Shown: piece by piece, positions 24,315 through 62,102 of the stretch
Layout: every line of letters starts with the position of its first letter
How positions within the stretch are numbered: the stretch's first letter is position 1
From: Candidatus Saccharimonadales bacterium
Lineage (GTDB): Bacteria; Patescibacteriota; Saccharimonadia; Saccharimonadales; JAGPDM01
Reading direction: 5' to 3'
Length of the DNA: 64,000 nt
Assembly (NCBI GenBank): GCA_044227985.1
Contig: JBGAVT010000002.1
Span: 19,452 to 83,451, forward strand
Notes under the pieces: generated by a model
Told to the model about the DNA's origin: nothing
The model's input: the letters and a program-made list of their open reading frames with translations, nothing else
Databases searched by the model: none
Translations under genes and position numbers: made by a program

Positions 24315-26552
24315 ATGGCTCGAGATTTAGATTTTCTGCATAAGGACATCACAATGGATGCTGGTGAAAGAGCAATCTGTGCGATTAGGGTTAGCCATTT
24401 GTTACAGGAAATTAAGGCAACTGGGTATGAAACTTCAGGTTTCGACATTCAATATTTTCCAGATACCGGAATAGACAACCCTAGGCAAAGAATAAATAGG
24501 TTCCATCCATCTGTAGAGGATCAAAATGGTAGGAACTGGCAGTTCTGTGCCATTCCTGACGGTGAAGCTACGGCGATTGGTATTGCTTATGGTAATGCAG
24601 TGGTACCAATATTTTCTCTGTTAACCAAAGAATCTTCTGACCCTACACAGAGAAATTGCGTTACATTGATGCCTATACCAAGACTAATTGATGACGGAGC
24701 TACTAAAACTGTTGATGATTGGCTAGAAAATATGGTTACGACTAATGATGATGAACGCAAGCCGCTTTACGAACTTGAAGACGGCGCAGTTGTTCCGTCA
24801 GCTCAAATTGTTGAAAGTATCCTACATTTAGTCGGCAGACCTTCGGCATTGGAAGACCATCCCGAGGGATACGTGTTGACCGCACCTCAACTCTTTGGAG
24901 TGCTAAATTTGCAACATTACATCGATGTCACAGGTCTTACGGAAGAAATTATAAAATCTGAAGAATCCGTTGCGCTCTCAAAAACAGAAAAACTCGAGCC
25001 AGTCGAAGAGGCACTATCTGTAGCCTCAGCTATAGTCGAAGCTGAAAGAAAGCTGACTGAACAAGCAGAGCCTAAAGGATGGGTCATCAAGAGTAGCTTG
25101 GGGGAACGCGGACGTCGTCTTGAATCAACTGCTGTAACTACTCTAAATTTTGTACCCGGGGAAGGCCTAGCGATTACTACAACTGTATCTCCGAAACATA
25201 GTGATAAATATTCTTATGGTGTGGCAACCATCAGAGATGGCAAGGTTGTGTATCTTGATAATAGAAGAGAAGTAAGCGAGGAACAAATAAAAAGACTTCA
25301 GCTAGAAGTGGCAGAAAGAATTGGCGCTCAAACAAAAGTGGTTTTGCCTAAACCAACTGAACGTGAATACAATGGTGAAGAATCTTTGAATGCTGAAGTA
25401 GAAAAAGCTAATGTTGTTGATTATAGTGAAGCTGATATAACTCAGGGCAAACAACTATTAGTAGATAGGCTTGAATTATTAGCGGCTAGTAGTGGAAGAG
25501 GTAGCAACTGGCAACGTGCAGTCCAAGTTTCAGAAGAAATAGATCAATTCATTCGAGGTTTTGAGCTGCTCCCTAATACTTTATTCGATCTAAATGGTTG
25601 CGATAGTGAAAAAATGAAAAGTTCAGTATTATTAGAATCTCTTCTGCAAGAATACCCACCGAGACATAGATTTACTGGAACTTTTAATCTCGAAGAGAGC
25701 TCTCTGATATATGATTTGAACTATGCCTTAAGTGCCGATATCGCCTTAGTGGAAACAGAAACAGCCAGATTTGGTTTTATGCCTAACTTTGCCACTCTCC
25801 ATCTATTAAATGCAGGTGCGCAAAAAGTCCAAGCAACTAATAAAAAAAACGAAAATAGGTTATTAGTTATAGCCAATGATGGTAGAGCAGCTGCTAGAAA
25901 AGGTGGCCCAGTAATTTTATATACAGAGGAAAACAACAGGTTGTACAACATACATGATGGTGTAGACGAGATAAGGTTCTATTGGGTAAGAGGTAAAAAT
26001 TCAGGATTTAATCCTCGTTCAGTCGGGAATCTTCCCGGTAATACAATTGCGCACTTCGTGAAAACAGAATCAAATGGCAAAAACGCCAGGGTTATGGCGA
26101 TAAATGGACAGACAGTAAGAATCGAAGATAGCTCCTATGATGAAAAAAAACGAAAACTTGTAAAAGATCGCTCTAGTCGGAAAAGAAAAAAAGCTCTCGT
26201 TTCAGAAACCGATAAGATAATAGATGATATGCGTGAAGTCTGCTCTCGTGTAGGTATAAATTTTGGTTACATTAGTGCTGAATATGCAACAGAGCTGCCC
26301 CACACTTACACTAAGACAGGGCTAAACAAAAGAGCGATTGGAGAATTGGTAAAATATGCGACGATGTTTGGCGGAGGTGGGGCTGGGGTAACTGCAGCAG
26401 CTCATCTTGCAGTTGAATCTCCATTCATAAACCCAGTAATTGCTGGTCTATTTGGCGGAGGCGTAGCGTTAAAAAAATCACGAATTCTAAAAAGAAGTAT
26501 TGATGCTTTTAGAGCAAAAAAAGCACTCAAAACAGCCGATTCCGACAAATAA
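24315..26552 (+). CDS. orphan 745-aa protein with C-terminal glycine-zipper membrane anchor
   Basis: Long uninterrupted ORF with no signal peptide and no motif I recognise. The K/R-rich stretch KKRKLVKDRSSRKRKK is followed near the C-terminus by FGGGGAGVTAAAHLAV...VIAGLFGGGVAL and a basic tail. Confidence 0.7.
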   Translation: MARDLDFLHKDITMDAGERAICAIRVSHLLQEIKATGYETSGFDIQYFPDTGIDNPRQRINRFHPSVEDQNGRNWQFCAIPDGEATAIGIAYGNAVVPIFSLLTKESSDPTQRNCVTLMPIPRLIDDGATKTVDDWLENMVTTNDDERKPLYELEDGAVVPSAQIVESILHLVGRPSALEDHPEGYVLTAPQLFGVLNLQHYIDVTGLTEEIIKSEESVALSKTEKLEPVEEALSVASAIVEAERKLTEQAEPKGWVIKSSLGERGRRLESTAVTTLNFVPGEGLAITTTVSPKHSDKYSYGVATIRDGKVVYLDNRREVSEEQIKRLQLEVAERIGAQTKVVLPKPTEREYNGEESLNAEVEKANVVDYSEADITQGKQLLVDRLELLAASSGRGSNWQRAVQVSEEIDQFIRGFELLPNTLFDLNGCDSEKMKSSVLLESLLQEYPPRHRFTGTFNLEESSLIYDLNYALSADIALVETETARFGFMPNFATLHLLNAGAQKVQATNKKNENRLLVIANDGRAAARKGGPVILYTEENNRLYNIHDGVDEIRFYWVRGKNSGFNPRSVGNLPGNTIAHFVKTESNGKNARVMAINGQTVRIEDSSYDEKKRKLVKDRSSRKRKKALVSETDKIIDDMREVCSRVGINFGYISAEYATELPHTYTKTGLNKRAIGELVKYATMFGGGGAGVTAAAHLAVESPFINPVIAGLFGGGVALKKSRILKRSIDAFRAKKALKTADSDK

Positions 26553-31404: not shown

Positions 31405-33627
31405 ATGGCAAAGGGCAAATACATTGTAATCGAAGGCGCAGATGGTAGCGGTAAAACTACCATGGCGAGAAATATTCAGGCCTTACTCTTTCAAAAACTA
31501 GGTATCAAAGCAGTTATTCTGCGCGAGCCAGGCAGTACGGAATTTGCCGACAAAATCCGCGAAGTTCTAAAAAGTACGACTAGTCGTAGCCCTGAGGCAA
31601 ACGTCTTAGCTTTTAATGCCGCACGTGCCGACACAATGCGTGAAGTTGCGAAGCATATCGAAAACGGTGGCTGGGTTATTGCTGATCGAAGCTGGATTTC
31701 CACTGTGGTGTATCAAGGTTACGGCGAAGGGCTTGATATCGACAATCTGCGACGAATCAGCCAGTACGCGGCTGCAGCTCAAGCAGACTTGACTGTAGTC
31801 TTAGATGCACCAGTTGATGTTCGACGAGCTCGTAACCACAAACGTGGTGGTAGTGATTATTTCGAGAACCAATCAGATGACTTCCATGAACGAGTGCGTC
31901 AAGGCTATTTGGAGGAAGCTGAATTTCTTGGTTTACCATTAATTAATGCTAACGATAGTGAATCTAGTATCGCTACCCAGCTATGGGGTATGGTTGAAGA
32001 GATTACTGATATTAAAAGTAAAACTAAAAAGACTAAACGTAACCCATTTGTTGAAAAGACAGAACATGGCATGCAGCCGACTGAGCTCGGCAATCAATGG
32101 CTTGGTAATGTGCTGAGTAATCCAAATAAAAATGCCTATGTTTTCAATAACAATCTCAGCCCAATCACCATCGCAGCAGCAATGGCACGACTCAGTCGTC
32201 GTGCCGACGATATGCGAGTAACAATTCTTGACGAATTCAGCCAGATCGAAGGCAAGGACGATTCATTGCTGCGTCGGGTGATTACAGCTTACGGTGATGA
32301 TTCAGTCCAACAATTAACAGGGATCCATGCTGTCGTAGAGAATGCTAGCAACCTTTTGACGAAGAAACTTGAGTGGGGAAGACTGGCTGCCTATCTTGAA
32401 CAATCAACCCGATATATCTATTACGACCGTAAAACACGAGAAGGTAAGTACCGCTATTATACGCCAACAGAGTTCGATGAATCGACCACTAAAATTTATA
32501 ATGAAACGCTTGACCAGATCTTCGATCTTTACTCTATAGTTGTACACGAATTAACAGATTTTATTACAGCTCGAGACGAAACCCCTAAAGAAGAACGAGA
32601 TATCGCCTGGAAGGGGGCGATTCGCGCTCAGGCCTGCGACGTGGCACGAGCGATGCTTCCTGTGGCTACAACATCTACTGTTGGGCTGTATGCAAGTGGG
32701 CAGGCCTATGAAAGCTTAGTCATGCACTTGATGAGTGATGAGCTAGAGGAATCACGTGCAACCGGAGAAGACCTCCTTGAAGCTGGTCGCACCGTAGCAG
32801 CAACATTCCTAGAGCGAGCTGATAAACCAAGTCGTGGTGGAGCAATGCAAGCATATAGAGCCAATACAAGAAATGCCGTCGCAGAAATCACCGAGAAACT
32901 GCTGTCTAATACTGGCTATAGCGACGATAAACGAGACGTGCATTTAGTCAGTACATCCATGCGTAACGAACTGGATGTCGTACCGTATATCCTTTACGAA
33001 GCCTCCGAACTATCACTTGATGAGTTACAAAAAGAAGTAGCCGATTGGAGCTATGATAAAAAACTAGAAGTCTTTAATGCCTACATTGGAGAGAGATTAA
33101 ACCGACGACACAAGCCAGGGCGGGCATTTGAGCATATCGAGTACAACTGGGATTTAATGTGTGACTACGGTATTTTCCGCGATTTACAGCGTCATCGCAT
33201 GGTTGAAGGTCTTCAGTGGCAGAAGCTTACACCACGTTACGGCTATGAAACACCAAAATTAATTGAAGATGCTAACTTAACCGAAGCATACGACCAAGCT
33301 TTTGAGCTGAGCCAGCATCTTTTTAGTCGGCTTCAAGCTTTAGGCTTATATGAACAAGCGCAGTATGCAACGTTAATGGGTCACCGTATGCGGTGGAAAA
33401 TTTCTTTCAATGCTCGTGAAGCTTTTCATTTCATGGAACTACGAACAGCCCCACAAGGCCACCCAGCATATCGAGCACTTGTGAAAACCATGCATGAGCA
33501 GCTTTCAGAAATCCACCCACTGACAGGGGGCGCTATGAAGTTTGTTAATCAAGACGAAGACGCCGCACTAACTCGTCTCGCAGCCGAACGCTACACTCAG
33601 TTTAAGCTCAACCAACTAGGCCAGTGA
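31405..33627 (+). CDS. fusion protein: thymidylate kinase plus tandem ThyX-like (flavin-dependent thymidylate synthase) domains
   Basis: The N-terminal ~200 aa is Tmk (YIVIEGADGSGKTT, VIADRSWISTVVYQG, LID RRARNHKRGG). Two ThyX-like repeats follow. Repeat A has LEWGRLAAYLEQSTRY with the RHR triad lost. Repeat B has FRDLQRHRMVEGLQWQKLTPRY and WKISFNAREAFHFMELRTAPQGH. Confidence 0.8.
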   Translation: MAKGKYIVIEGADGSGKTTMARNIQALLFQKLGIKAVILREPGSTEFADKIREVLKSTTSRSPEANVLAFNAARADTMREVAKHIENGGWVIADRSWISTVVYQGYGEGLDIDNLRRISQYAAAAQADLTVVLDAPVDVRRARNHKRGGSDYFENQSDDFHERVRQGYLEEAEFLGLPLINANDSESSIATQLWGMVEEITDIKSKTKKTKRNPFVEKTEHGMQPTELGNQWLGNVLSNPNKNAYVFNNNLSPITIAAAMARLSRRADDMRVTILDEFSQIEGKDDSLLRRVITAYGDDSVQQLTGIHAVVENASNLLTKKLEWGRLAAYLEQSTRYIYYDRKTREGKYRYYTPTEFDESTTKIYNETLDQIFDLYSIVVHELTDFITARDETPKEERDIAWKGAIRAQACDVARAMLPVATTSTVGLYASGQAYESLVMHLMSDELEESRATGEDLLEAGRTVAATFLERADKPSRGGAMQAYRANTRNAVAEITEKLLSNTGYSDDKRDVHLVSTSMRNELDVVPYILYEASELSLDELQKEVADWSYDKKLEVFNAYIGERLNRRHKPGRAFEHIEYNWDLMCDYGIFRDLQRHRMVEGLQWQKLTPRYGYETPKLIEDANLTEAYDQAFELSQHLFSRLQALGLYEQAQYATLMGHRMRWKISFNAREAFHFMELRTAPQGHPAYRALVKTMHEQLSEIHPLTGGAMKFVNQDEDAALTRLAAERYTQFKLNQLGQ

Positions 33628-33697
33628 TCTATCGATGCTTGTAGCCGACTTCATTAACACAATAATTACAATAGAATTCAAATAAAACAACTAAAAA

Positions 33698-34255
33698 TTA
33701 CATTTTACTCAGAATCTTTTCCGTGCTTAACACTTCGCAGAACTCTCCACTCAAACTAGCTAGAGCTAAGTCGTGTACGTTGTTAGCACTAAAAACCTTG
33801 CCATCATAGCTCTGTCTTTCAAACGTTGCTGTAGCATCGTTAATCACAATACAAGAAAAACCTAAATTAGCTGCCATTCTGGTAGTTGTTGATACACAGT
33901 GGTCAGTGGTTAGGCCTACTATTACCAATGGATTTGCCTCCATTTCTAATAACAATTGTTCGAGGTTTGTACCTATAAAAGCACTGTTCACCTTTTTTAT
34001 TATTATAGTTTCTCCGCGTTCCGGCCTTGCAACTGATTTGTACTGATTGCCGATGTTCTCGGGATGGAGAAGTGAATTCGCATCGGATGAATCATGCTTT
34101 ACGTGTATTATTGGCAAATTTTTCTTTCTCCAAGCTTCCAGCAACTTCCCGATATTGTCTTCAGCTTCCAAGTTATTTCTTTCTCCCCAGCTAGGATCAT
34201 CGAAACCTATCTGTATGTCGATAAGAATGAGGGTAGGGTTTCTAAGGTGTTTCAT
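33698..34255 (-). CDS. isochorismatase-family cysteine hydrolase (nicotinamidase-like)
   Basis: LILIDIQIGFDD, IIHVKH and VVGLTTDHCVSTTTRMAANLGF (catalytic Cys block) are present. Confidence 0.8.
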   Translation of the reverse strand: MKHLRNPTLILIDIQIGFDDPSWGERNNLEAEDNIGKLLEAWRKKNLPIIHVKHDSSDANSLLHPENIGNQYKSVARPERGETIIIKKVNSAFIGTNLEQLLLEMEANPLVIVGLTTDHCVSTTTRMAANLGFSCIVINDATATFERQSYDGKVFSANNVHDLALASLSGEFCEVLSTEKILSKM

Positions 34256-34478
34256 TGTATTTTTTAATATATATCTGCTATTTTAGTTTAGCACTCAAGT
34301 TTTCGGTCAACAATCTTGTTTTCAACAAGGAGCATAGACGATAATCCAGTGACTAGGTAAGCTGCATATTATATGGGTAATTAGATTCATTGTTATTTCT
34401 TTAATTTACCTTCACTCTCATGGCTAACGAACCAATATATTTCTATCTAAAATTGTTAAAATATACAATTTTCGCTTT

Positions 34479-34507
34479 TTGACAAAAGACGCTCAATAAA
34501 GTATCAT
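34479..34507 (+). promoter_or_regulatory. promoter of the leuA leader
   Basis: TTGACA (34479-34484), 17-nt spacer, TATCAT (34502-34507). The leader-peptide ATG lies 7 nt downstream. Confidence 0.6.
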
Positions 34508-34514
34508 CGGAAAT

Positions 34515-34592
34515 ATGAATTTTTTGAATAAAAGAATTGATCAGCTGCTACTAATCGCGCTTGTGCGTGATGAGCTGGAGCCTGCTTACTAA
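34515..34592 (+). CDS. candidate branched-chain amino acid leader peptide (25 aa)
   Basis: MNFLNKRIDQLLLIALVRDELEPAY has 6 Leu codons, including the run CTG-CTA-CTA followed by Ile-Ala-Leu-Val. Alternative hairpins and a terminator follow it upstream of leuA. Confidence 0.5.
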   Translation: MNFLNKRIDQLLLIALVRDELEPAY

Positions 34593-34622
34593 GCCACGAC
34601 ACAAGCCTAAAATATTAAAAAG

Positions 34623-34651
34623 GGTTCCAGTTTCGGAACCATTTTTAATTT
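34623..34651 (+). terminator. attenuator terminator in the leuA leader
   Basis: GGTTCC-AGTTTC-GGAACC followed by ATTTTTAATTT. It lies about 100 nt upstream of the leuA start. Confidence 0.6.
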
Positions 34652-34743
34652 ACAATATTTTAGGAGAATTTCAATGAGCGACACAGAGAAACAAATGCAA
34701 TTTAGGGCAATTTCACGTATCATTAAGCGTGAACAAATCGTAA

Positions 34744-36321
34744 TTGGAGATGATGGTGCCGTACCGAGAAGCTAATAAAGTTTTAATTTTTGACACGACC
34801 TTGCGTGATGGCGAACAAAGTCCTGGTATTTCTCTGAACAAAACAGAAAAACTAACAATCGCACACGCTCTGGCTGAGCTTGGTGTCGACGTCATCGAAG
34901 CTGGATTTCCAATTGCTAGTATCGGTGATTTTGAAGCCGTTCAAGCAATTGCGCGAGAAGTGCATGGTCCTACTATTTGTGGACTTGCTCGAGCGGTCAA
35001 CGGTGATATCGACCGTGCATGGGAGGCGATCAAAGACGCTGAAAAACCTCGTATCCACACCTTTATTGCAACCAGCAAGGTTCACATGGAGCATAAGCTG
35101 AAGATGACACCGGAAAAAGTCGCGGAAAAGGCCAATGCAGCTGTTGCTCGCGCTAAAAGCTATACTGACGATGTCGAGTTTAGTCCCGAAGACGCTGCTA
35201 GAACAAGCCTAGACGTCATGCTGGCCGTTATACAGGCGGCGGTTGATGCTGGAGCAACAACTATTAACATCCCTGATACTGTTGGTTACACAACACCACA
35301 CGAGTTTGCGGAACGAATTGCTGAGGTTAGGAAAAACATAAAAGGTGATTATATAATTTCCACTCATTGCCATAATGATCTTGGCATGGCGACTGCAAAC
35401 AGCTTGGCTGGAGTAGGTGCTGGTGCCCGGCAAGTAGAAGTGGCGGTCAACGGAATCGGCGAACGGGCAGGTAATGCGGCTTTAGAAGAGATTGTTATGG
35501 CTATTAAGCTGAAGTCGGATAGCTACGGCGGTGTTTATACTGAAGTCGATTCAAAGCTTATCACTCGGACAAGCCGACTTGTCAGTAATCTAACTGGCTA
35601 TCCGGTTCAGTACAACAAAGCGATTGTTGGCCGCAATGCTTTTTCTCATGAGTCGGGTATTCATCAAGATGGAGTTATCAAGAAGCGCGAAACTTACGAG
35701 ATTATAGACCCAGCAGATGTTGGCGCTGGTGAAAGCCAAATTATCCTTGGAAAACACTCTGGCCGTGCGGCAATTTCATCTGCACTAAAAAAATTAGGTC
35801 ACGAGCTAGACAAAAACCAAATGGATGAAGTTTTCATTGATTTCAAAGCCTTAGCTGATCAAAAAAATAATGTGTCTAATGCTGATTTAAGCGCAATTGT
35901 TGACTCCACCGTTCTTCACTTAAACGATACAAACAATCGCTACGAGTTAGAGTCCGCTTCTTTTGCGCTTAATGATGACGAAAAGCCGTCGGCTACTATC
36001 AAAATCAAAACACCTAACGGCGAAACTATCGAACAATCTGCAGTCGGTAACGGCATGGTAGATGCGGTTTGCACCGCTATCCGTGAAGTAGTTGGGCTTA
36101 AGATTGAACTTGTCGAGTATCTCGTCCAGGCAGTAACTGAAAGTATTGATGCACTTGCGTCCGTTAATATACAGCTACGTTCACACGATAAAGTCGCAAC
36201 TGGGCGAGGCAGTGATACTGATGTTGTCCGTGCTTCTGCAAAAGCCTACCTCGACGCGGTAAATCGACTACTCACGATTGATGATGATAGAAATATGAAA
36301 ACGAAGGCTCGGGGACAGTAA
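34744..36321 (+). CDS. leuA: 2-isopropylmalate synthase / citramalate synthase family enzyme
   Basis: IFDTTLRDGEQSPG, HCHNDLGMATANSLAG and a C-terminal LeuA-dimer regulatory domain are present. The likely start is GTG 34756, 6 nt after GGAG, or ATG 34750/34753. Confidence 0.85.
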   Translation: MEMMVPYREANKVLIFDTTLRDGEQSPGISLNKTEKLTIAHALAELGVDVIEAGFPIASIGDFEAVQAIAREVHGPTICGLARAVNGDIDRAWEAIKDAEKPRIHTFIATSKVHMEHKLKMTPEKVAEKANAAVARAKSYTDDVEFSPEDAARTSLDVMLAVIQAAVDAGATTINIPDTVGYTTPHEFAERIAEVRKNIKGDYIISTHCHNDLGMATANSLAGVGAGARQVEVAVNGIGERAGNAALEEIVMAIKLKSDSYGGVYTEVDSKLITRTSRLVSNLTGYPVQYNKAIVGRNAFSHESGIHQDGVIKKRETYEIIDPADVGAGESQIILGKHSGRAAISSALKKLGHELDKNQMDEVFIDFKALADQKNNVSNADLSAIVDSTVLHLNDTNNRYELESASFALNDDEKPSATIKIKTPNGETIEQSAVGNGMVDAVCTAIREVVGLKIELVEYLVQAVTESIDALASVNIQLRSHDKVATGRGSDTDVVRASAKAYLDAVNRLLTIDDDRNMKTKARGQ

Positions 36322-36756
36322 ATGATTCAGGCAATCTACGCTAGCACATCCGGAAATGTTGAGTACGTGATGACGCAGATTGCTAAACTTGAACCACGAG
36401 TGAGCTTGTTACGAGCAGAATATATAGAATCCGGATCTTTTGATAGCGACATATTCATATTTGCAACTTCGACATGGGCTCACGGCGAAGTAAATCCATT
36501 TTTCGTTCCCGTCCTCAAACAAATTGAGAATCTCGATATGACTGGCAAAAAAGCATTTTTTATCGGTCTCGGTGATAATCGTTATGAACCCGTATTGTTC
36601 TGTGAGGCTATCAATATTACCCGTAGAGCCTTCGATGCTTCGGGCGGCCAATCACTCGGGAAAACATTTAGACTCAATGGTGATCCGTATACTCAGGAAG
36701 ATAAAGTCGAAGACTGGGTAAAGAATATGTTGCAAAAGGAGCTTATAAATGCGTAA
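36322..36756 (+). CDS. flavodoxin
   Basis: 144 aa. IYASTSGNVEYVM matches the FMN phosphate-binding loop pattern (S/T-x-T-G-N-T/V-E). The gene starts 1 nt after the leuA stop. Confidence 0.7.
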   Translation: MIQAIYASTSGNVEYVMTQIAKLEPRVSLLRAEYIESGSFDSDIFIFATSTWAHGEVNPFFVPVLKQIENLDMTGKKAFFIGLGDNRYEPVLFCEAINITRRAFDASGGQSLGKTFRLNGDPYTQEDKVEDWVKNMLQKELINA

Positions 36757-38482
36757 AGATCGTCTGCGTATAAAGTTTGCCGGTGAGAGCGGTCAGGGGA
36801 TCGACTCAGTCGGTAAAGCTATCACTGAAGCCTTGGTTTGGGCCGGGTATTACACCTTTGGTTACCGTGAGTATCCAAGTCTAATTAAGGGTGCTTGGGC
36901 CAATTATCAAGTAGATGTTTCAGATCAACCGCTACAGTCAAGCTCTGAAAAATGCGACATTCTGCTATGTATCAGTCGTTATAGTATTTATGAATATTTG
37001 CCAACGCTTGCCGACGGAGGTCAGCTAATTCACAGTATGGAAAGGTTAGAGCTACCTGACGAGCTACAAGATTTTGTCAGCGATCACAACATCACTATTG
37101 AATATGTAAAAGCGATTGAGATTGCCGAAGCTCAGGGCGGCAATGCATTGATGGAGAACGTTGTTTTGGTCGGCGTACTCTGGCAGTTACTGGGAATACG
37201 ACTTGAACCGTTTCAAAATGAGCTCAAAAAGCTATTTGCTAAAAAACCAGATTTACTAGAACTTGACCTTAAATGCGCCGAAGCTGGCTATGTTTATAAA
37301 ACACAACACGCGAAAAAAATTGATTTCACGACTATGTTTAAATCAAATATGAAACTTATTAAGAACCAAGTAATCGACGGTAACTACGCAATCAGTAAAG
37401 GTGCGGTCGATGCCAGCGTCAGGGCTTTTTATGCTTATCCGATGACGCCAAGCTCATCCGTACTGACTTATCTGGCTGACTGGCAATTTGAAACCAAGAT
37501 GGTCGTGAAGCAGATAGAAGATGAAATATCGGCTGCCCAATTTACGATTGGTAGTAGTTTTATGGGAACCCGAGCCATGACCGCAACGAGTGGTGGAGGC
37601 TTTGATCTCATGACGGAAAGTGTTAGTTTGGCTGGAATAACCGAAACTCCACTCGTCATATTTTTGTCACAACGACCCGGGCCTGGCACCGGGCTTCCAA
37701 CTTGGACAATGGCAAGTGATTTGCCAATAGCGGTCTACGGCGGACATGGTGAATTTGCCCGAATCGTTGTGGCGGCAAGCGATCCGAAAACTGCTTATCG
37801 CGTTACACAGGAGGCTCATAACCTAGCGGAAATGTATCGAGTGCCAGTGATAATCTTGTCAGAAAAACAGATAGCCGAATCGCTTTATAATATTGATAGT
37901 TTAGGTGAAAAAGTACCTATTAAACGTCAATTAACAGATACACCAATCATTCCAGAATCAGCGAGTGATTTCTACAATGAACACGAAACAGGTGTCAGCA
38001 CACGATGGTTCCCGGGTGATAACTTACCAGTTTTTCTCTCTAATAGTGATGAGCACGACGGTGAAGGAAATTCAATTGAAGATGGTCCAACCACAAAGCT
38101 TCAATATGGTAAGCGTATAGCAAAACAAAAATTAATTGAGGACGCTTTGCCGCTACCAAAAATTTATGGCAATAAAGAATCTAAAAACTACATAATCGGC
38201 TGGGGGAGTACGGCAAATACTGTGCTTGATTTAATCGATAACTATGAGAACCTAGCTTACGTACATTTCGAATATCTTTGGCCGTTGAATGCAGCTAAAA
38301 TTGCTGAGCTGCTAGATAATAAGACCTTGTTTAGCGTTGAAAACAACTACACCTCCCAATTAGCAACGTTGCTGAAGTCTCAGCTACCGCTCGAATTCGC
38401 GAAGCAGTTTACAAAGTATGATGGTCGCGGATTTTTCGTTGAAGATATGGAAGCAATCTTAGACGAGGTGAATCAATCATGA
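36749..38482 (+). CDS. 2-oxoacid:ferredoxin/flavodoxin oxidoreductase, fused gamma-alpha subunit
   Basis: The N-terminal gamma-like segment reads IKFAGESGQGIDSVGKAI. The alpha domain reads AVDASVRAFYAYPMTPSSSVL...ATSGGGFDLM. It overlaps both neighbours, consistent with an operon. Confidence 0.8.
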   Translation: MRKDRLRIKFAGESGQGIDSVGKAITEALVWAGYYTFGYREYPSLIKGAWANYQVDVSDQPLQSSSEKCDILLCISRYSIYEYLPTLADGGQLIHSMERLELPDELQDFVSDHNITIEYVKAIEIAEAQGGNALMENVVLVGVLWQLLGIRLEPFQNELKKLFAKKPDLLELDLKCAEAGYVYKTQHAKKIDFTTMFKSNMKLIKNQVIDGNYAISKGAVDASVRAFYAYPMTPSSSVLTYLADWQFETKMVVKQIEDEISAAQFTIGSSFMGTRAMTATSGGGFDLMTESVSLAGITETPLVIFLSQRPGPGTGLPTWTMASDLPIAVYGGHGEFARIVVAASDPKTAYRVTQEAHNLAEMYRVPVIILSEKQIAESLYNIDSLGEKVPIKRQLTDTPIIPESASDFYNEHETGVSTRWFPGDNLPVFLSNSDEHDGEGNSIEDGPTTKLQYGKRIAKQKLIEDALPLPKIYGNKESKNYIIGWGSTANTVLDLIDNYENLAYVHFEYLWPLNAAKIAELLDNKTLFSVENNYTSQLATLLKSQLPLEFAKQFTKYDGRGFFVEDMEAILDEVNQS

Positions 38483-39354
38483 GTTGTGGAAGCTGCCCAT
38501 CACTAGAGGATTGCGATCCAGGAACGCGAGCAAGTTTTGCTAGTAAAAATCTCTATACTTGGTGTACAAACTGCGGAAATTATGGAATTTTCGGAGCAGT
38601 CAAAAATGCTTTAACACAGGAGAATAAAAAACCACATGAAGTTTTATTAGCTTTTGATATTGGTTGCAACAGCAACGGTGCTGATAAGATTTCTGGCTAC
38701 CGCTTCAAAGGACTCCACGGACGAGTGATACCATTTGCCTGCGGCGCTAGTATTGCTAATCAAGACGTTCCAGTGCTTGCGTTTGCTGGCGATGGAGCCA
38801 CGCTCGGCGAGGGCATTAGCCACTTTGTTCACGCCGTACGCACTAACTACAATGTCACTTTTATCTTACATAACAATTATAACTACGGCTTAACAACTGG
38901 GCAGGCCAGTCCAGCTACACCAGACGGCATACCTATGAAAGTGTCTCCCTATGGAACGACTGCCGAGCAGCTCAATGTATCGCAGCTCGTCATGTCTCTT
39001 AAGCCAAGCTTTTATGCTCGTAGCTATTCGGGCCACGTTGGGCACATGACAAATGTGATTCGTAAAGGCATGCAACATAAGGGGTTTTCGGTCGTTGAAG
39101 TCATGCAGGCCTGTCCAACCTTTAATAAGGCCACGCCACACATGTGGTATATGGAACGAGCTTTTGATATCAGCGACATTAAAGATTACGATAAAACTGA
39201 TCTTGAACAAGCTAGACGAGTAGCCAATGACTTAACAGACAAAATTGCCATTGGCGTTTTATATCAACGCGAAGATATGCCTGATTTCATGGCTAAACAA
39301 CAACAACGCAAGAACGAAACCACTAACCTATCCTCAGAAGTATCAATTAACTAA
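38479..39354 (+). CDS. 2-oxoacid:ferredoxin/flavodoxin oxidoreductase, beta (TPP-binding) subunit
   Basis: WCTNCGNYGIF, the TPP motif AFAGDGATLGEG...LHNNYNYGLTTGQ and a further conserved Cys are present. Confidence 0.8.
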   Translation: MSCGSCPSLEDCDPGTRASFASKNLYTWCTNCGNYGIFGAVKNALTQENKKPHEVLLAFDIGCNSNGADKISGYRFKGLHGRVIPFACGASIANQDVPVLAFAGDGATLGEGISHFVHAVRTNYNVTFILHNNYNYGLTTGQASPATPDGIPMKVSPYGTTAEQLNVSQLVMSLKPSFYARSYSGHVGHMTNVIRKGMQHKGFSVVEVMQACPTFNKATPHMWYMERAFDISDIKDYDKTDLEQARRVANDLTDKIAIGVLYQREDMPDFMAKQQQRKNETTNLSSEVSIN

Positions 39355-39822
39355 GTTTTTTGATGGCATTATCTGCACCCTAGTCTCATCAGTTCGCGGG
39401 TGCACGATCGTTGGACTATTCCCACCCCAAACACCGCCCCATTTAGTGTCGCCAGGAATAAAGTTAGGACAAGTCCAGCAGTTACCAGGAACATCGGAAT
39501 CAGGACTTTTCATCTCTGTTGATGCTCCACGCGCCCAAGCACTATAATCATTTTCATCGTGGAAATGTCTCGTTAGTTTAAAATAGAAAGTCCCTAGTGT
39601 GACTAGCTGCGGCGGTATTGCTTCGTCGCTTGATGTAAAAACTTCAGCCAACTTACTTGGTTTTACATGTCTTGGCAATGCAATGTCGTTGCCTATTGCT
39701 TCTAGGACGGGTCCCCAAGTTTCGCTTCCACAATCATCCGGAGGCAGAAACTCTCCACTACACTGTGGCGGAACGTGGATAGTAGGCATTGACATTCTTA
39801 GTTTATCGCCGAAATTTGACAT
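39343..39822 (-). CDS. hypothetical Trp/Gly/Cys-containing protein, locally G+C-rich gene
   Basis: 159 aa with no recognised motif (features: PPQCSGEF, NCWTCPNF, WGGVWGG). A hand count of 39361-39480 gives about 52% G+C, against about 40% in typical neighbouring coding sequence. Confidence 0.45.
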   Translation of the reverse strand: MSNFGDKLRMSMPTIHVPPQCSGEFLPPDDCGSETWGPVLEAIGNDIALPRHVKPSKLAEVFTSSDEAIPPQLVTLGTFYFKLTRHFHDENDYSAWARGASTEMKSPDSDVPGNCWTCPNFIPGDTKWGGVWGGNSPTIVHPRTDETRVQIMPSKNLVN

Positions 39823-39892
39823 AATTATCTATTACTATAACCTAAAACTATTGTTAATCAATATATGTTAGAGTAATAGTCAAAGGAGAGAT

Positions 39893-40252
39893 ATGAACAA
39901 ACCAGCAGCTAAGTATTCACCAATTCGAAAAGTCGGTAATGCCTATTATATCTCCGGACAAGTAGCATTTAAGCCAGATACACTTGAGCTAATTAGCGAT
40001 GATATAAAGGAACAGATCGTTCAAGTCATGAAAAATATTAAGAATTTGCTAGAAAACAAAGGCTTATCAATGGGGGATCTCGTAAAAACTACCGTTCTTC
40101 TTGACGATATCGATAACTATGCTGTTATGAATGAAGTTTATGCTGAATTTATTGTCGGCGATACCCCACCTGCGAGGGCAGCTTATGCAGTCAAAGCACT
40201 GCCGTTTGGCGCTAAAATTGAAATTGAAGCTATTGCCTATAAAGAATCGTAA
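39893..40252 (+). CDS. ridA: RidA (YjgF/L-PSP) reactive enamine/imine deaminase
   Basis: 119 aa. YSPIRKVGNAYYISGQVA...MGDLVKTTVLLDDIDNYAVMNEVYAEF...PARAAYAVKALPFGAKIEIEAIA is typical of the family. Confidence 0.85.
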   Translation: MNKPAAKYSPIRKVGNAYYISGQVAFKPDTLELISDDIKEQIVQVMKNIKNLLENKGLSMGDLVKTTVLLDDIDNYAVMNEVYAEFIVGDTPPARAAYAVKALPFGAKIEIEAIAYKES

Positions 40253-40312
40253 TTCTTTTTCATAGCTTAAATACGTGCGAAAAATCTGTAGACCGAGTAT
40301 AATCCCTAATTT

Positions 40313-41797
40313 GTGGACCCTATAGTAAGCCAAATCAATAACAGCCTAGTTTACGACGTCAGCAAAGTAACTGCGCTAGATCATGCCAAGAAACTTTCCG
40401 ATAAACTGAATAATGCAATATATTTTAAACGCGAAGACCTGCAGCCGGTAAAATCGTTCAAAATTCGTGGCGCCTACAACCGAATTGCTCAGCTCAGTGA
40501 TAATGAAAAGAAAGCTGGAGTCATAGCTGCTAGCGCTGGAAACCATGCCCAAGGAGTAGCTTTAAGCGCACAAAAACTTGGAATAGAAGCGACAATCATT
40601 ATGCCGACGACGACACCTCAAATCAAAATCGATGCGGTTCGTTCATATGGTGCAGAGGTAGTACTTTTCGGTGATAGTTACAGCGATGCTGGTGACTATG
40701 CAAAAGAATTACAAAAGAATCGCGACATGATCTATGTTCATCCTTTTAACGATCTCGAAGTTATTGCTGGACAAGGAACTATTGGTAAAGAAATTGTCGA
40801 ACAGCTGACTCAAGTTGATTATATTTTTGTTCCAGTTGGCGGCGGCGGATTATTAGCTGGGATTGCAAGCTATGTCAAAAACATAAAACCAAACTGCAAC
40901 ATTATTGGTGTCGAACCAATCGATAGTAATGTAATGAATCGTTCGCTTAAAGAAGGTAAAATCGCCGAACTGAAAAGTGTTGGAATTTTTGCGGATGGTG
41001 TTGCGGTTAAAGTTCCAGGAGATAATACATACGAATTGTGCTCTAAATATGTAGATGAAATGATGACTGTTTCCACCGATGAAATATGTGCAGCAATAAA
41101 AAATATCTATGAAGATAGTCGCTCAATTGTCGAACCTGCAGGTGCACTAGCTATGGCTGGCGCTACACGATTTATAGAAAAAAACTCTCTCAAAAATAAA
41201 AATATCGTTGTTATTAATAGTGGTGCGAATATGACTTTTGAGCGTTTGCAGTTTATTGCCGAGCGAACTCTAGTTGGCAGCGGCAAAGAAGTTCTGTACA
41301 GCATAGAATTAGCAGAAAAGCCTGGTGCGCTTCGAGGTTTAGTCGAGAATGTAGTTAACGGCTATTCGATAAGTGAGTTTAATTATCGCAAACAAGATAT
41401 CAAAAAAGCGCATATTTTTGTTGGTATGCTCTTGGTTGAGCCAGAAGATAAACTAAGATTAGAAACCTCTCTCAATAAATATAACTATAAATTCAAAGAT
41501 TTAACTAGTAATGAGATCAGTAAACGACATTTACGCCATATGATAGGCGGCAAAGCACCAAAAGGAACAAACGAAGCCTTATTCGAATTTGTCTTCCCTG
41601 AGCGACCCGGGGCATTACATGAGTTTTTAATAGCAATTGAAGATCGTTATAATGTCAGCCTTTTTCACTACCGTAACAACGGGGGTGACAACGCGCGAGT
41701 CATGATCGGGCTTGAAGGCCATAGCATAAAACTTGATTTACCAGATGGGTTCGAAAAACATACTATCGCTCATAATACTTTTGCTGATTTCATCTAG
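40313..41797 (+). CDS. ilvA: threonine dehydratase (biosynthetic type with C-terminal regulatory domains)
   Basis: PLP lysine block QPVKSFKIRGAYN, GNHAQGVAL, VPVGGGGLLAGI, and about 170 aa of tandem ACT-like C-terminal domains. GTG start. Confidence 0.85.
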   Translation: MDPIVSQINNSLVYDVSKVTALDHAKKLSDKLNNAIYFKREDLQPVKSFKIRGAYNRIAQLSDNEKKAGVIAASAGNHAQGVALSAQKLGIEATIIMPTTTPQIKIDAVRSYGAEVVLFGDSYSDAGDYAKELQKNRDMIYVHPFNDLEVIAGQGTIGKEIVEQLTQVDYIFVPVGGGGLLAGIASYVKNIKPNCNIIGVEPIDSNVMNRSLKEGKIAELKSVGIFADGVAVKVPGDNTYELCSKYVDEMMTVSTDEICAAIKNIYEDSRSIVEPAGALAMAGATRFIEKNSLKNKNIVVINSGANMTFERLQFIAERTLVGSGKEVLYSIELAEKPGALRGLVENVVNGYSISEFNYRKQDIKKAHIFVGMLLVEPEDKLRLETSLNKYNYKFKDLTSNEISKRHLRHMIGGKAPKGTNEALFEFVFPERPGALHEFLIAIEDRYNVSLFHYRNNGGDNARVMIGLEGHSIKLDLPDGFEKHTIAHNTFADFI

Positions 41798-41800
41798 ATA

Positions 41801-41829
41801 TTGACAAATACTATAATTTGAACTATAAT
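41801..41829 (+). promoter_or_regulatory. consensus promoter, probable leaderless transcript
   Basis: TTGACA (41801-41806), 17-nt spacer, TATAAT (41824-41829). The ATG at 41836 lies 6 nt downstream with no SD. Confidence 0.55.
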
Positions 41830-41835
41830 ATATTT

Positions 41836-42639
41836 ATGTCTTTCAGAGAACGCGCACAAGTTCAACCAGCTTCGCAATTCGACCATATTGTCCATTGGGT
41901 AAGACAAGGACCTAAAGTTAGACCAGATGGTACCTACAATCATGGAATATTATTTCCTGTCACAGCCAATACAAAGCTTCGGCCAGCAGTAGCTCAGAGT
42001 AAAGACGATGAAGGTAAGTTACGTTCTGTAGAGCGCAGTGATATAAGCCCAGAAGAGTATGACTTCCTTAGGAAGACAAGTATACACGGATTAGTAAGAG
42101 CGATGGGAGCAGTTAAACAACGAGCCTGGGCTACAATGCCTGTTCGCAACATATACCTTGGTGTTGAAGGTAATTTTGTATCTCTACAAAAAGGGAACCC
42201 AACTATAGTAAAAATTAAAGAATTTGAAGAAGGATATTCTAGTAAAGTTAGAACTGTAACAGTCGCTAGCAGCAGAGGGTTCAACAAAGACGGAACTCCT
42301 CAACCTTATATGCCTCAAGCTAAATTTTCTACATACTGGGGGGAGGGTGATCCGAACGGAAAAAATACAACCATTCGAGCAAACCCGATACTGACAAAAA
42401 ATTTTCACAACATACCTATTCCGGATATAACTATCGATTTAGCAAGAAATAAACATGTTAAATCGAAAAGAGACGAGACCGCACCTGACATTTCGATTGC
42501 TGAAGCATTTGGCATACAGTCTTCAAGCTTAGATGCCGATTATGCACCACAGAATGAAGTATTACAAAGGATGCTACTTGGTGTAGCCGCAGCCGCAGTA
42601 ATAAAACTAGCAATTGAAATGCCATATGATGGAGAATAG
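41836..42639 (+). CDS. hypothetical protein (267 aa)
   Basis: No motif recognised. There is a hydrophobic C-terminal segment (MLLGVAAAAVIKLAI). It is the last cargo gene before rplJ. Confidence 0.45.
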   Translation: MSFRERAQVQPASQFDHIVHWVRQGPKVRPDGTYNHGILFPVTANTKLRPAVAQSKDDEGKLRSVERSDISPEEYDFLRKTSIHGLVRAMGAVKQRAWATMPVRNIYLGVEGNFVSLQKGNPTIVKIKEFEEGYSSKVRTVTVASSRGFNKDGTPQPYMPQAKFSTYWGEGDPNGKNTTIRANPILTKNFHNIPIPDITIDLARNKHVKSKRDETAPDISIAEAFGIQSSSLDADYAPQNEVLQRMLLGVAAAAVIKLAIEMPYDGE

Positions 42640-42675
42640 CCATCAGTTGACGCGTATTCGATAATAAGCTATTAT

Positions 42676-42813
42676 TGTCTTAGTTTTGCCAAAGACAGTA
42701 GCAGCAGAAATGCTTAATTCGCTACCGAGGACGAACGAACAGTCACTGTTTGTTTTGTGATAACACACATCGTTTTAGTCTTTGGTGAACAAAAGCCAAA
42801 GACTTTTTGTTTT
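42676..42813 (+). promoter_or_regulatory. candidate rplJ (L10) leader with alternative structures and intrinsic terminator
   Basis: Terminator AGTCTTTGG (42777-42785) / CCAAAGACT (42796-42804) followed by TTTTGTTTT, 37 nt before the rplJ ATG. An upstream copy of CCAAAGAC (42689-42696) can pair with the terminator's left arm, and is itself sequestered by the hairpin TGTCTT (42676-42681) / AAGACA (42692-42697). Confidence 0.55.
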
Positions 42814-42850
42814 AGCTAAAAATAATTAATAAGGTGAAAGGAAATAATCA

Positions 42851-55231: not shown

Positions 55232-56449
55232 CTAATCTTTATCGAGATCATCGAACTTATTTGCCATCGTTGGGTTGCCACGTATTAACTTTTTTACAGT
55301 TAATTCAGTAGCTTTATTATTGGCAATTCGTAGGTTGTCCTCTGAACGTATAAGGTTTTCTTTGGTTTTCTGTAGTTGGACGATTGATTTATCGATACTA
55401 TCGATCGCAGTTTTAAATTTATCAGAAGCTAATCGATAGTTTCGACCAAATGACTCACGAAAATCATCTAATTGGTGTTCAAAGTTAGTTACGTCGGTGT
55501 TCTGTGCTTTGACTAAAGCCAATTCTGATTTATATTTCATTGAATTAAGTGCCGCATTGCGGAGCAGAGTAATCATAGGGATGAAGAACTGAGGCCTGAT
55601 GATATATGTTTTTTCGTGCCTATGTGACATGTCAACAATGCCAGTATTATAAAGTTCGTTGTCAGATTCAAGAAGTGAAACCAACACAGCATATTCACAA
55701 GACTTTTGGTTGCGATCTTTATCTAGCTCCTTTAAGAAATCCTCATTCTTTTTTTTACTAGCAGTTTCATCGCCTTCGTTTTTCATTTCGAACATTATCG
55801 ATATAATCTCATTACCATTCTCGTCATCCTCTCTGTAGATATAATCACCCTTGCTACCTGAGCTGGCATCATTATCTTTTTCAAAATATGCATTCTGAAA
55901 GGCAGTAGCTCGAAGTCTGTTAAACTCAGTTTCGCAATGCTGCTCAAGTGTTTCACCAATCATCTTAGTGGATAATTTGGCTTTCATATCCTTGTAGTAT
56001 GCAATCATCTCATCTTTAGTTTTTAGTTCGTTTTCGTATCTATCTTTTAAACTAGATTCCAGTAATTTATTCTCAATATCTTTATTTTCGAGATTATTTG
56101 CCAGTGCGTCTCGTTCCCTCTCTAGGCTAGAAACAGCTTCGTTTAATGCTAGCTTTTTTTCTATTTCCGAAGCAGAAATTTTTGCTTCTAACTTAATTAT
56201 TTCATTGTCTTTTACTGACTTGAGCTCTGCGAATTTTGTTTGTATCTTCTCATAATCTACACGAAGCTCATTTTTAGTCTTTTCTTGGGCGAGTAGCACA
56301 GCGCTTACTTTATCTTTTTCAGCTAACGTTAGTCTTTCATGTAGTTCTTTCTCAAACTGGCCATCACGAACTTGTTTTAAGATCTCTGCAAATCCTGCTT
56401 CATCAACCTTGAATGCTTTTTTACAATGTGGACATAGTATTTCATTCAT
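55232..56449 (-). CDS. DUF2130-like protein (N-terminal zinc ribbon, long coiled coil, C-terminal nuclease-like domain)
   Basis: [29 protein letters not shown] is followed by about 150 aa of coiled coil. The C-terminal part then contains GDYIYRE...[10 protein letters not shown] (a D...E.K-like motif). Confidence 0.55.
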
Positions 56450-61025: not shown

Positions 61026-62102
61026 CTATTCCAAATCAGTTAGCAGGTACGCTTTATTCAACATCTCCTGATATTCATCTTCTACATTAGAATCCCAAAC
61101 AATCCCACTGCCCACACCAAGCTTGAGCTGATTACCTGTTTTTTCCAAGGTTCGAATTAGTATTGACGAATTTAAACTACCATCGGCAAGAATCTGAAAA
61201 GCACAACCAGTGTAGAAACCTCTGGGATTTGGCTCTAACTGTACAATGCTCTTGATTGCTTCTGATTTTGGGCATCCAGTGATTGAGCCTCCAGGAAAGC
61301 AGGATACAAGCGCTCGAATCGGAGAGATATTTTCTTTCAGTTTTCCCGATATTATTGAAGAGGTATGGGTTATCCTTTCTAGATGTTGTACCTTGCGATC
61401 ATTTTCAACGACAACAGTGCCCGCATCGCAGACTTCTGATAAATCATTGCGAAGGAGGTCAGTTATCATTGCTAGCTCAGCTTCTTCTTTTCGGCTTGCT
61501 AATAGCTCTGCATCAAAGCCAACGACTCTGGCCGTACCTTTTATCGGCTCTGTCTTGACTGTTCTATGTGCGTCTATACACAAAAACATTTCAGGACTTG
61601 CACTGATTATCTGTTGTTCACCCAGATCGAATAGGCATGTGTGCGCTCGTGGGAATTCATGTGCAATATAACTAAACCAATCCACAACACTATAGTTTGA
61701 CTCGGCAGTCACTCTATCTGTTAAATTAATCTGGTAAATCTGCCCCTTCTTGATGAGTCGAATAATTTCCGCAAAGCGATTATTAAATATTGCCTGATTT
61801 GGAAAGTTCAGATTGGAGACCGTCGGTTTATGTGAAATATATTTATTTTTTTTATCAGATTGAGCATAAGAAAAAACATTAATTTTCTTATACGATAAAT
61901 TCATGTTGACCACTGATCCCCAACTATTTGAGACATCGAAAGGTATAACCCCAGCAACAATATTTCCCTTGCTATGTTCTGTTTCCACGAAATCTATTAA
62001 ATAATCTTTGTTTAGCCCGATGTAGCTCGAAATAGGTTGCGAAAAATTACTACCATTCCATAAACCAGATTTGCCAGAAAAACTTACATCGCCTAAAGCC
62101 AT
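61026..62102 (-). CDS. pabB: chorismate-binding enzyme (aminodeoxychorismate synthase component I-like)
   Basis: FPGGSITGCPKSEAIKSIVQLEPNPRGFYTGCAF and GVGSGIVWDS match TrpE/PabB C-terminal blocks. At 358 aa it is short, which fits PabB better than TrpE. Confidence 0.65.
   Translation of the reverse strand: MALGDVSFSGKSGLWNGSNFSQPISSYIGLNKDYLIDFVETEHSKGNIVAGVIPFDVSNSWGSVVNMNLSYKKINVFSYAQSDKKNKYISHKPTVSNLNFPNQAIFNNRFAEIIRLIKKGQIYQINLTDRVTAESNYSVVDWFSYIAHEFPRAHTCLFDLGEQQIISASPEMFLCIDAHRTVKTEPIKGTARVVGFDAELLASRKEEAELAMITDLLRNDLSEVCDAGTVVVENDRKVQHLERITHTSSIISGKLKENISPIRALVSCFPGGSITGCPKSEAIKSIVQLEPNPRGFYTGCAFQILADGSLNSSILIRTLEKTGNQLKLGVGSGIVWDSNVEDEYQEMLNKAYLLTDLE

Follow-up and report, generated by a model that had tools for sequence, protein, structure and literature searches.

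Actinobacterial leuA genes have been described as having leaders that encode short leaderless peptides with a run of leucine residues (PMC8079986; PMC5784534; PMC1262725). These leaders often lack a typical Rho-independent terminator (PMC8079986; also PMC5784534 and PMC3890552). The LEU element (Seliverstov et al. 2005) is presented in PMC1262725 as an upstream open reading frame (uORF) with a leucine run, together with a pseudoknot and a base stem that joins the leucine run to the Shine-Dalgarno (SD) sequence of leuA. This report concerns a leader of comparable type that precedes the 2-isopropylmalate synthase gene, leuA, in a 64,000-nucleotide (nt) stretch of DNA from a Candidatus Saccharimonadales bacterium (contig JBGAVT010000002.1 of assembly GCA_044227985.1, positions 19,452–83,451). 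The whole stretch that was analysed is termed the window and is numbered from its first letter.

To our knowledge, the Saccharibacteria are ultra-small epibionts assumed to be without amino acid biosynthesis, and they have barely been studied for RNA regulation. For Saccharibacteria, the literature search yielded no publication that deals with attenuators or with leuA. The leader described here appears to be a functional, ribosome-mediated transcription attenuator that would respond to leucine through the charging of tRNA-Leu and control leuA and the genes that follow it. From the sequence and the structure models, a probability of roughly 75% is assigned to this interpretation. Its basis consists of sequence elements, their conservation, covariation, and alternative folds obtained in silico. 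The type of control is known and the lineage is unexpected; the features particular to this leader are a leaderless start, an antiterminator arm carried in the loop of a hairpin, and a relay open reading frame that is conserved.

The nearest analogues appear to be the actinobacterial leaderless leuA leaders and the LEU element, not the enteric leu leader or the T-box. As in actinobacterial leuL (e.g. LeuL1 of Streptomyces lividans, MRFGLLLLSCRGEGL), a leaderless open reading frame (ORF) with a leucine run is located directly upstream of leuA. Unlike actinobacterial leuL, the leaders of the window clade have a clear intrinsic terminator, the peptide of the window is longer and spans two pairing arms (termed A and R2 below), and a second conserved ORF (uORF2) is intercalated before leuA in the window clade. 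With the LEU element, compared by its description, the leader shares two helices in a pseudoknot topology.

Promoter and leader open reading frame

The elements at the 5′ end of the leader are the following.

34479–34507, + strand: sigma-70-type promoter (TTGACA at 34479–34484, 17-nt spacer, TATCAT at 34502–34507)
34515–34592, + strand: 25-codon leader ORF, MNFLNKRIDQLLLIALVRDELEPAY (ATG at 34515, 7 nt past the -10 box; stop codon at 34590–34592)
34524–34526, 34545–34553, 34560–34562 and 34575–34577, + strand: leucine codons L4, L11–L13, L16 and L21 of the leader ORF

The promoter matches at 11/12 positions and is the top promoter-like site within positions 33500–35500. The initial annotation of this DNA had proposed both the promoter and, 7 nt after its -10 box, a 25-codon ORF with six leucine codons (TTG, CTG, CTA, CTA, CTT, CTG), and both are present as proposed.

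There is no SD sequence ahead of the ATG at 34515. Since this ATG is at about +1, the leader ORF would be leaderless. This fits the genome in which it is found: among the long ORFs of the window, TANNNT occurs 6–8 nt before the ATG in 9 of the 14 genes that have no SD, compared with 2 of 18 genes with an SD and 6% of all ATGs. Translation of the leader ORF without an SD is plausible.

Leaderless genes look common in this Saccharibacteria genome. Examples of leaderless-type starts are 50674(+), 51260(+), 55232–56449(-), 59405–60988(-), 61026–62102(-), 6051(+) and 11992(+). In addition, positions 41801–41836 hold a perfect TTGACA-17-TATAAT promoter (12/12) that ends 6 nt before an ATG at 41836. 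The ORF listed as starting from TTG 41818, which encodes a protein without a family match and lies just upstream of the ribosomal protein L10 leader, probably starts leaderless at 41836.

Alternative pairings in the leader

Downstream of the leucine run, the following elements are predicted.

34559–34569, + strand: 5′ arm of stem 1 (arm A), GCUUGUGCGUG, within the leader ORF; it holds Leu16 (CUU)
34595–34606, + strand: 3′ arm of stem 1 (arm B), CACG-A-CACAAGC, with A34599 bulged
34572–34583, + strand: 5′ arm of the antiterminator (R2), GAGCUGGAGCCU, within the leader ORF; it is enclosed by the stem-1 loop and begins 2 nt past arm A
34622–34633, + strand: 3′ arm of the antiterminator (R3), GGGUUCCAGUUU, overlapping the 5′ arm and loop of the terminator
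34617–34651, + strand: intrinsic terminator, core GGUUCC-AGUUUC-GGAACC at 34623–34640 and a U-rich tail to 34651

Stem 1 pairs 34559–34569 with 34595–34606 through 11 bp with one bulged A, as had been claimed, and is part of the minimum-free-energy fold. That fold, computed for 34513–34655, contains both stem 1 and the terminator (z = -3.07 against shuffles). The R2:R3 helix has 12 bp, four of them G-U, and its duplex energy is -18.8 kcal/mol, where shuffles average -9.1 (p = 0.001). The pairing of 34575–34582 with 34623–34630 put forward earlier is contained in this longer helix.

The core of the terminator has 6 bp (-8.2 kcal/mol). A terminator at 34623–34651 had been claimed, and it is recovered both by the terminator scan and in the fold. 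It is extended by pairing of the A-tract with the U-tract (34617–34621 with 34642–34646), and the tract that follows the hairpin is ATTTTTAATTT (AUUUUUAAUUU). The terminated transcript has a predicted size of about 132–137 nt.

The initial annotation had described the three pairings as mutually exclusive. This holds for the antiterminator and the terminator, which overlap, but not for stem 1 and the antiterminator, which share no bases. R2 is located inside the loop of stem 1, and stem 1 and R2:R3 thus have a pseudoknot topology; the folding used here covers nested structures.

The terminator is symmetrical (A tract, hairpin, T tract) and was scored on the minus strand as well. A covariance model made from the three closest leaders only (termed R1) also matches the minus strand at 34612–34715(-), around 34617–34646. 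The terminator could stop antisense transcription arriving from leuA.

Conservation in related Saccharibacteria

LeuA homologues with >60% identity form three small clades of Saccharibacteria, and their loci were fetched. The members of the LeuA 90% clusters are named Candidatus Saccharibacteria. RpoA of the window is 97% identical to a Saccharibacteria protein at NCBI, and its best matches all come from Saccharibacteria. The comparison set consists of eight further distinct leuA leaders in the three clades (nine with that of the window). The window clade (LeuA 69–100% identical) includes L096–L098 (91%), L085 (77%) and L086/L095 (69%); the other two clades, L087/L099 and L088/L089, have LeuA identities of 62–64%. 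In addition, four copies of the window leader are identical to it except for one additional A in uORF2 of one assembly. A protein search and a cluster listing indicated that the JGI copies are variants already in the set.

All eight further leaders display a -35/-10 promoter, an ATG 6–10 nt past the -10 box without an SD sequence, and a leucine-rich ORF with a CUN leucine codon within arm A of stem 1. All eight also have a stem 1 of 11–12 bp and a second helix, in which the loop of stem 1 pairs with a segment further downstream. L096, L085, L086, L095, L087/L099 and L088/L089 retain the ORF with its frame, the leucine run and a stop codon located in the loop of stem 1. R2 begins 2–3 nt after arm A in all leaders, and the stop codon is within or just after R2. 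Conservation of the peptide and its leucine run in relatives, on which the initial annotation had let its proposal depend, is found at LeuA identities of 91%, 77% and 69%, together with compensatory changes.

In the window clade, the promoters have the form TTGACx, 17 nt, TAnnnT, and are followed after 6–8 nt by the ATG. The leader ORFs are 20–25 codons long and leucine-rich: MKFVSNTFSQLLLLALVRDELEPAY, MTTATASLKQLLLIALVREELEPAY, MIINRQSQLNLLALAALCVRG and MINQQAQLNLLALAALCVRG. Promoter spacers and N-terminal codons are unrelated among these leaders. R3 serves as the terminator's 5′ arm, a U tract completes the terminator, and AGGAG and uORF2 follow. In L085 the terminator is stronger (-15.8 kcal/mol).

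L086 and L095 give an example of how the arrangement is kept when the sequence is not. Their terminator stem, GACUUC/GAAGUC, is unrelated in sequence to that of the window, and their antiterminator, GGUUGAAGUCU with AGACUUCAACC in 11 perfect pairs, is unrelated as well; the three-way relationship is maintained. The two leaders differ from each other by a one-codon indel that keeps the frame, and their LeuA sequences are 99.6% identical.

Upstream of the leader ATG, the sequences of L086 (3721–3760) and L095 (532–572) are unrelated, with TTGACA-17-TAnnnT and the spacing to the ATG kept. This suggests a promoter replacement by recombination.

In L087/L099 and L088/L089 the leucine-rich ORF starts 10 nt after the -10 box. 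Stem 1 has 11–12 bp and R2:R3 has 7–9 bp, and the helix sequences are different. No terminator, no uORF2 and no clear hairpin that sequesters an SD were found in these leaders.

Covariation, which had been suggested as a check on the pairings, was scored in these leaders. Arm B of L086 and of the more distant clades was placed wrongly by MAFFT in repeated alignments, and the helices were therefore registered by hand. In the resulting alignment, the 11 pairs of stem 1 are 100% paired in 7 distinct sequences, with 7/11 pairs changed on both sides and none broken; for R2:R3, 9/12 pairs are changed on both sides. The covariation score is 0.81 against 0.30 for shuffles (0/500 reach it) and 0.24 or less when the partners are slid.

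Two further results bear on the helices. Model R1 finds L086/L095 at E-values of about 1e-4 with both helices aligned; it gives no match to the L087–L089 clades or to any leader from outside the Saccharibacteria, and no second copy in the window. In an alignment-free comparison, the best duplex of the stem-1 loop with the next 55 nt was set against dinucleotide shuffles (p = 0.001, 0.000, 0.002, 0.049, 0.077 and 0.041).

These data bear on a reading in which a chance ORF stands beside an ordinary terminator or insulator hairpin and has no regulatory role. Taken alone, the ORF is barely significant: 6/25 codons are leucine, the probability of 6 or more leucines in 25 codons is 0.025, and LLL is present in 25/720 short ATG ORFs of the window (3.5%). 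The hairpin is also symmetrical and is scored as a terminator on the minus strand too. It is because of its conservation in relatives that the ORF is significant. The whole arrangement is conserved with covariation over LeuA identities of 62–91%, and no gene ends upstream of the hairpin, since the neighboring gene is divergent. A chance arrangement is considered extremely improbable.

Ribosome-constrained folding and proposed mechanism

Folding with the ribosome as a constraint, as the initial annotation had advised, was carried out at several ribosome positions. When the full-length leader was folded at equilibrium with a ribosome stalled on it, the terminator was in most cases still obtained, and this is also the case for the classical leaders of Acidimicrobiia. 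Because folding of the whole leader at equilibrium is uninformative, truncated and decision-point transcripts were used. In 4/4 terminator-bearing leaders, the OFF fold (stem 1 and terminator) exceeds the ON fold (antiterminator) in stability by 2–9 kcal/mol, and termination would therefore be the default.

If the transcript ends short of the terminator's 3′ arm, the antiterminator is formed with the ribosomal A site at Leu13 or Leu16, and none is formed with the ribosome on the stop codon, where it covers R2. Switching between stall and stop was also obtained in silico for the cut transcripts of L085 and L086. The window leader still switches when the full terminator is included: Leu13 and Leu16 yield the antiterminator, and the stop codon in the A site yields the terminator. 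The earlier proposal that a ribosome at the stop codon at 34590 would permit termination is reproduced in these folds.

From these elements we infer where transcription starts, that the ORF is translated, where the ribosome stalls, the kinetic order of folding, coupling through uORF2 and the response to leucine, as follows. Transcription would start at or next to A34515, and the 25-codon ORF would be translated from a leaderless mRNA. With sufficient Leu-tRNA, the ribosome would reach the stop codon at 34590 and cover R2; with no ribosome on the leader, stem 1 would close around R2. With R2 covered or enclosed, R3 would be free to form the terminator (34623–34640 and U tract), with release of an RNA about 135 nt long. 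When Leu-tRNA is scarce, the ribosome would stall with Leu13 or Leu16 in its A site, and arm A would be held open with R2 free. R2 could then pair with the emerging R3 before the 3′ arm of the terminator is made, in the 12-bp antiterminator. RNA polymerase would read into uORF2, leuA and the flavodoxin and oxidoreductase genes. uORF2, with its own strong SD, would probably pass ribosomes on to leuA by translational coupling.

Several observations weigh against this attenuation model. With a ribosome at Leu11, where the run begins, stem 1 stays intact; the claim that a stall at the leucine run frees 34575–34582 is borne out in silico for Leu13 (and Leu16) but not for Leu11. Because of this, and because every lineage has a leucine codon in arm A, the effective sensor in the model is probably Leu16 (inside arm A) together with Leu13, the last codon of the run. 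In folds with the full terminator, L085 and L086 form the antiterminator at one ribosome position each only, and in L096 the terminator wins at every ribosome position. The equilibrium switch is not robust in the relatives, and the decision would therefore have to be kinetic (co-transcriptional), as in classical attenuators.

Other points on the same side concern the sequence and its sampling. The leader ORF by itself is weak evidence, as its frequency by chance indicates. An A/U hairpin is possible at the 5′ end of the leader, including the AUG, and could hinder leaderless initiation. The alignment registered by hand is biased towards structure. The distinct leaders that bear a terminator number five only, three of them near-identical in the core, and the absence of a terminator in the sister clades means that the ancestral output may have been something other than transcription termination. 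The window has no leuBCD or ilvBCDE genes, i.e. leuA is an orphan, and with no leuBCD near it leucine control has no obvious physiological sense. Stem 1 and R2:R3 could in principle coexist as a pseudoknot. Finally, in an experiment in an actinobacterium, cited in PMC1262725, mutation of the leucine codons left the regulation of leuA unchanged.

The last two points lead to a reading in which the leader is a translation-independent pseudoknot like the LEU element, bound by a protein or other factor, and the leucine-rich ORF is a by-product. A pseudoknot topology with connecting loops of 2–3 nt is found in all three clades, and L087/L099 and L088/L089 keep both helices without a terminator. A protein-binding role was proposed for the LEU element, as stated in PMC1262725, where the ineffective leucine codon mutations are also reported. 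Against this reading stand the following features: the ATG is fixed 6–10 nt from the -10 box in nine leaders with differing promoters, the open frame survives a codon indel (L086/L095), each lineage has leucine enrichment and an arm-A leucine codon, and the stop codon is always within or just after R2. Moreover, R3 is plainly half of a terminator in the window clade, and the base stem of the LEU element is unsupported here (p = 0.06–0.88). A translation-independent leader is judged unlikely, and attenuation by a translating ribosome is preferred.

uORF2 between the terminator and leuA

34662–34775, + strand: uORF2 with its SD (AGGAG at 34662–34666, 7 nt before the ATG; ORF at 34674–34775, MSDTEKQMQFRAISRIIKREQIVIGDDGAVPRS)

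A 33-codon uORF preceded by an SD had been noted at 34674–34775; it is present, and its frame differs from that of leuA, whose start it overlaps. L085, L096 and L086/L095 share the uORF2 peptide (MSxxEKxMQxxAISRIIxRE...), with synonymous changes and, in L096, a GTG start. Its length in the window clade is 25–33 aa. By these signs uORF2 is a conserved coding ORF and not an accidental one. In the window, L085 and L096 it extends 5–20 nt beyond the start of leuA; in L086 it stops 17 nt short of that start. Five of the 33 residues of uORF2 are isoleucine. An exhaustive search of 1.84 billion representatives yielded only the L085 peptide and one probably spurious match; uORF2 is therefore clade-restricted.

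In L082, at about position 3180 (equivalent to about 34688 of the window), an extra A in GAGAAAC within uORF2 would shift the frame, and no 33-aa gene is called there. Either a sequencing error or natural variation may account for it.

Across uORF2 and the beginning of leuA, no supported structure was obtained with RNAalifold, which rules out a hairpin that sequesters an SD in this region.

The arrangement of uORF2 bears on a reading in which control is mainly of translation, through access to the uORF2 or leuA start, or is exerted via Rho, with 34623–34640 a weak or partial terminator. The overlap of uORF2 with the leuA start is typical of translational coupling, and uORF2 is probably coupled to leuA in this manner. 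The terminator core is short, 6 bp at -8.2 kcal/mol, and in the sister clades, which have no terminator, the leuA SD follows soon after R3. Actinobacterial leuA leaders are likewise described without typical terminators (PMC8079986). However, a hairpin with a U tract is present in five leaders with compensatory changes, reaching -15.8 kcal/mol in L085; no conserved hairpin sequesters the SD of uORF2 or of leuA; and about 30 nt separate R3 from the SD of uORF2 downstream of it. Control mainly of translation or via Rho is regarded as distinctly unlikely, and control of transcription by attenuation, with coupling through uORF2 as a later step, remains the favored reading.

Comparison with known leaders

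No family of Rfam 15, including RF00512 (Leu_leader), the Leu/Phe leader and RF00230 (T-box), reached its gathering score at the locus, and no relevant family was found up to E = 10 within 34250–34850. The T-box, the enteric leucine leader and riboswitches are ruled out in this way at gathering and permissive thresholds.

The defining base stem of the LEU element was sought as duplexes of the leucine run with the uORF2 and leuA start regions. In seven leaders these were no better than shuffles (p = 0.06–0.88). Membership in the LEU-element family is not claimed, as the base stem of leucine run and SD is unsupported and the window clade has in addition a plain terminator. The leader is classed instead as a probable leader-peptide transcription attenuator that would act in the manner of an actinobacterial leuL equipped with a classical terminator. 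The terminator-less leaders L087–L089 and L099 fit the description of actinobacterial leaders, “lacks a typical Rho-independent terminator”.

Leaders of the Acidimicrobiia type show both likenesses and differences. L001 (Acidimicrobiales AG-414-N20) resembles the window in having a -10 box, TAGAAT, followed 7 nt on by an ATG without an SD. L001 and L092 have a leucine run (MITKNLLLLM* and MNTRVTNSAATILLLI, respectively), a hairpin, and a GC-rich terminator with a U tract. Unlike in the window, their peptide stops right after the leucine run and the first hairpin is wholly past the stop codon. They have no antiterminator arm in a hairpin loop and no uORF2, and are unmatched by model R1.

The enterobacterial leuL (RF00512), trp, his and ilv leaders share the logic of the attenuator proposed here, i.e. 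a promoter-proximal ORF with many cognate codons, an antiterminator and a terminator that exclude each other, and selection of the antiterminator by a ribosome that has stalled. The leucine codons of the E. coli leu leader are mostly CUA, and the run in the window, CUA with CUG, is akin to these. In contrast to the enteric leu leader, the start in the window is leaderless and not led by an SD, the antiterminator 5′ arm is in the loop of the first hairpin and is not the 3′ arm of that hairpin, and the phylum is different. The initial annotation had spoken of the classical enteric leu/ilv logic; the logic is indeed the same, but no Rfam family matches and the closest analogues are actinobacterial.

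In mycobacteria, leaderless polycysteine uORF attenuators that respond to cysteine and have no canonical terminator were reportedly found by Canestrari and colleagues in 2020. Common to these and the leader proposed here is a short leaderless ORF, rich in a single amino acid, placed in control of biosynthetic genes; the differences are cysteine in place of leucine and the absence of any sequence or structural relation.

The regions ahead of 80 other leuA genes were scanned for leucine-run ORFs; chance matches are frequent at any one locus, such that only recurrent motifs are meaningful. The motifs that recur are ...LLLLIRP* in Alphaproteobacteria and ...LLLRR* in Planctomycetota.

Implications

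If the attenuation model is correct, this would be the first leader-peptide attenuator for Saccharibacteria or for any bacterium of the candidate phyla radiation, as far as the literature searched and Rfam show. Reduced epibionts would then couple transcription to translation and monitor the charging of tRNA-Leu. The model would help to explain why an orphan leuA is retained in some of them beside oxidoreductase genes, with ridA and ilvA downstream. It would also add a lineage with apparently frequent leaderless mRNAs, which matters for gene calling. The leader would be a compact example in which the sensor codons, a helix arm and the antiterminator arm are all contained in a 25-codon leaderless ORF, and the natural variants, with or without the terminator and with or without uORF2, would be comparable for the study of attenuation.

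A bolder reading can be considered, in which Saccharibacteria run a working leaderless leucine sensor of the actinobacterial style, coupling transcription to translation, on an orphan leuA fused to the flavodoxin and oxidoreductase genes, and the isoleucine-rich uORF2 is an obligatory relay or a second amino acid checkpoint. Such a two-tier leader-peptide device (leader ORF and uORF2) would be undescribed elsewhere; it is conceivable, though doubtful.

leuA and its gene neighborhood

34753–36321, + strand: leuA, 2-isopropylmalate synthase (start at ATG 34750, ATG 34753 or GTG 34756)
36322–36756, + strand: flavodoxin gene, abutting leuA
36749–38482, + strand: 2-oxoacid:acceptor oxidoreductase, alpha/gamma
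38479–39354, + strand: 2-oxoacid:acceptor oxidoreductase, beta

The LeuA sequence passes the NCBIfam equivalog cut-offs (NF002086, 727 bits with a cut-off of 532; TIGR00973, 671 bits with a cut-off of 598.7). Outside the Saccharibacteria, its nearest relatives are in Acidimicrobiia and other Actinomycetota, with 57–60% identity; in a LeuA scan of genome contigs, the best among the matches listed was 57% (Acidimicrobiales). The flavodoxin and oxidoreductase genes follow leuA with no gaps between them. No terminator-like site was found between leuA, the flavodoxin gene and the oxidoreductase genes, and these are probably co-transcribed. The same gene order is present in L096, L086 and L095. ridA and ilvA are located further downstream of the oxidoreductase genes.

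The leuA block (34753–41797) is flanked by rplA and rplJ. In other clades of Saccharibacteria, just leuA-ridA precedes rplJ-rplL. Between the oxidoreductase beta gene and ridA there is a 159-aa ORF at 39343–39822 on the minus strand without a family match; the relative L096 (91%) has neither this ORF nor the gap, and an insertion or a spurious gene call is possible.

Three further loci of the window may be mentioned. In a 740-aa ORF at 31405–33627, an N-terminal dTMP kinase is fused to a C-terminal thymidylate synthase of the ThyX type, and this fusion is kept in L085 and L096. A 745-aa ORF without a Pfam match is located at 24315–26552, between nusG and rplK. Upstream of rplJ, positions 42671–42818 hold a ribosomal protein L10 leader (RF00557, 68.3 bits), which has its own promoter-like site at 42647–42675 and a terminator-like hairpin at 42777–42804.

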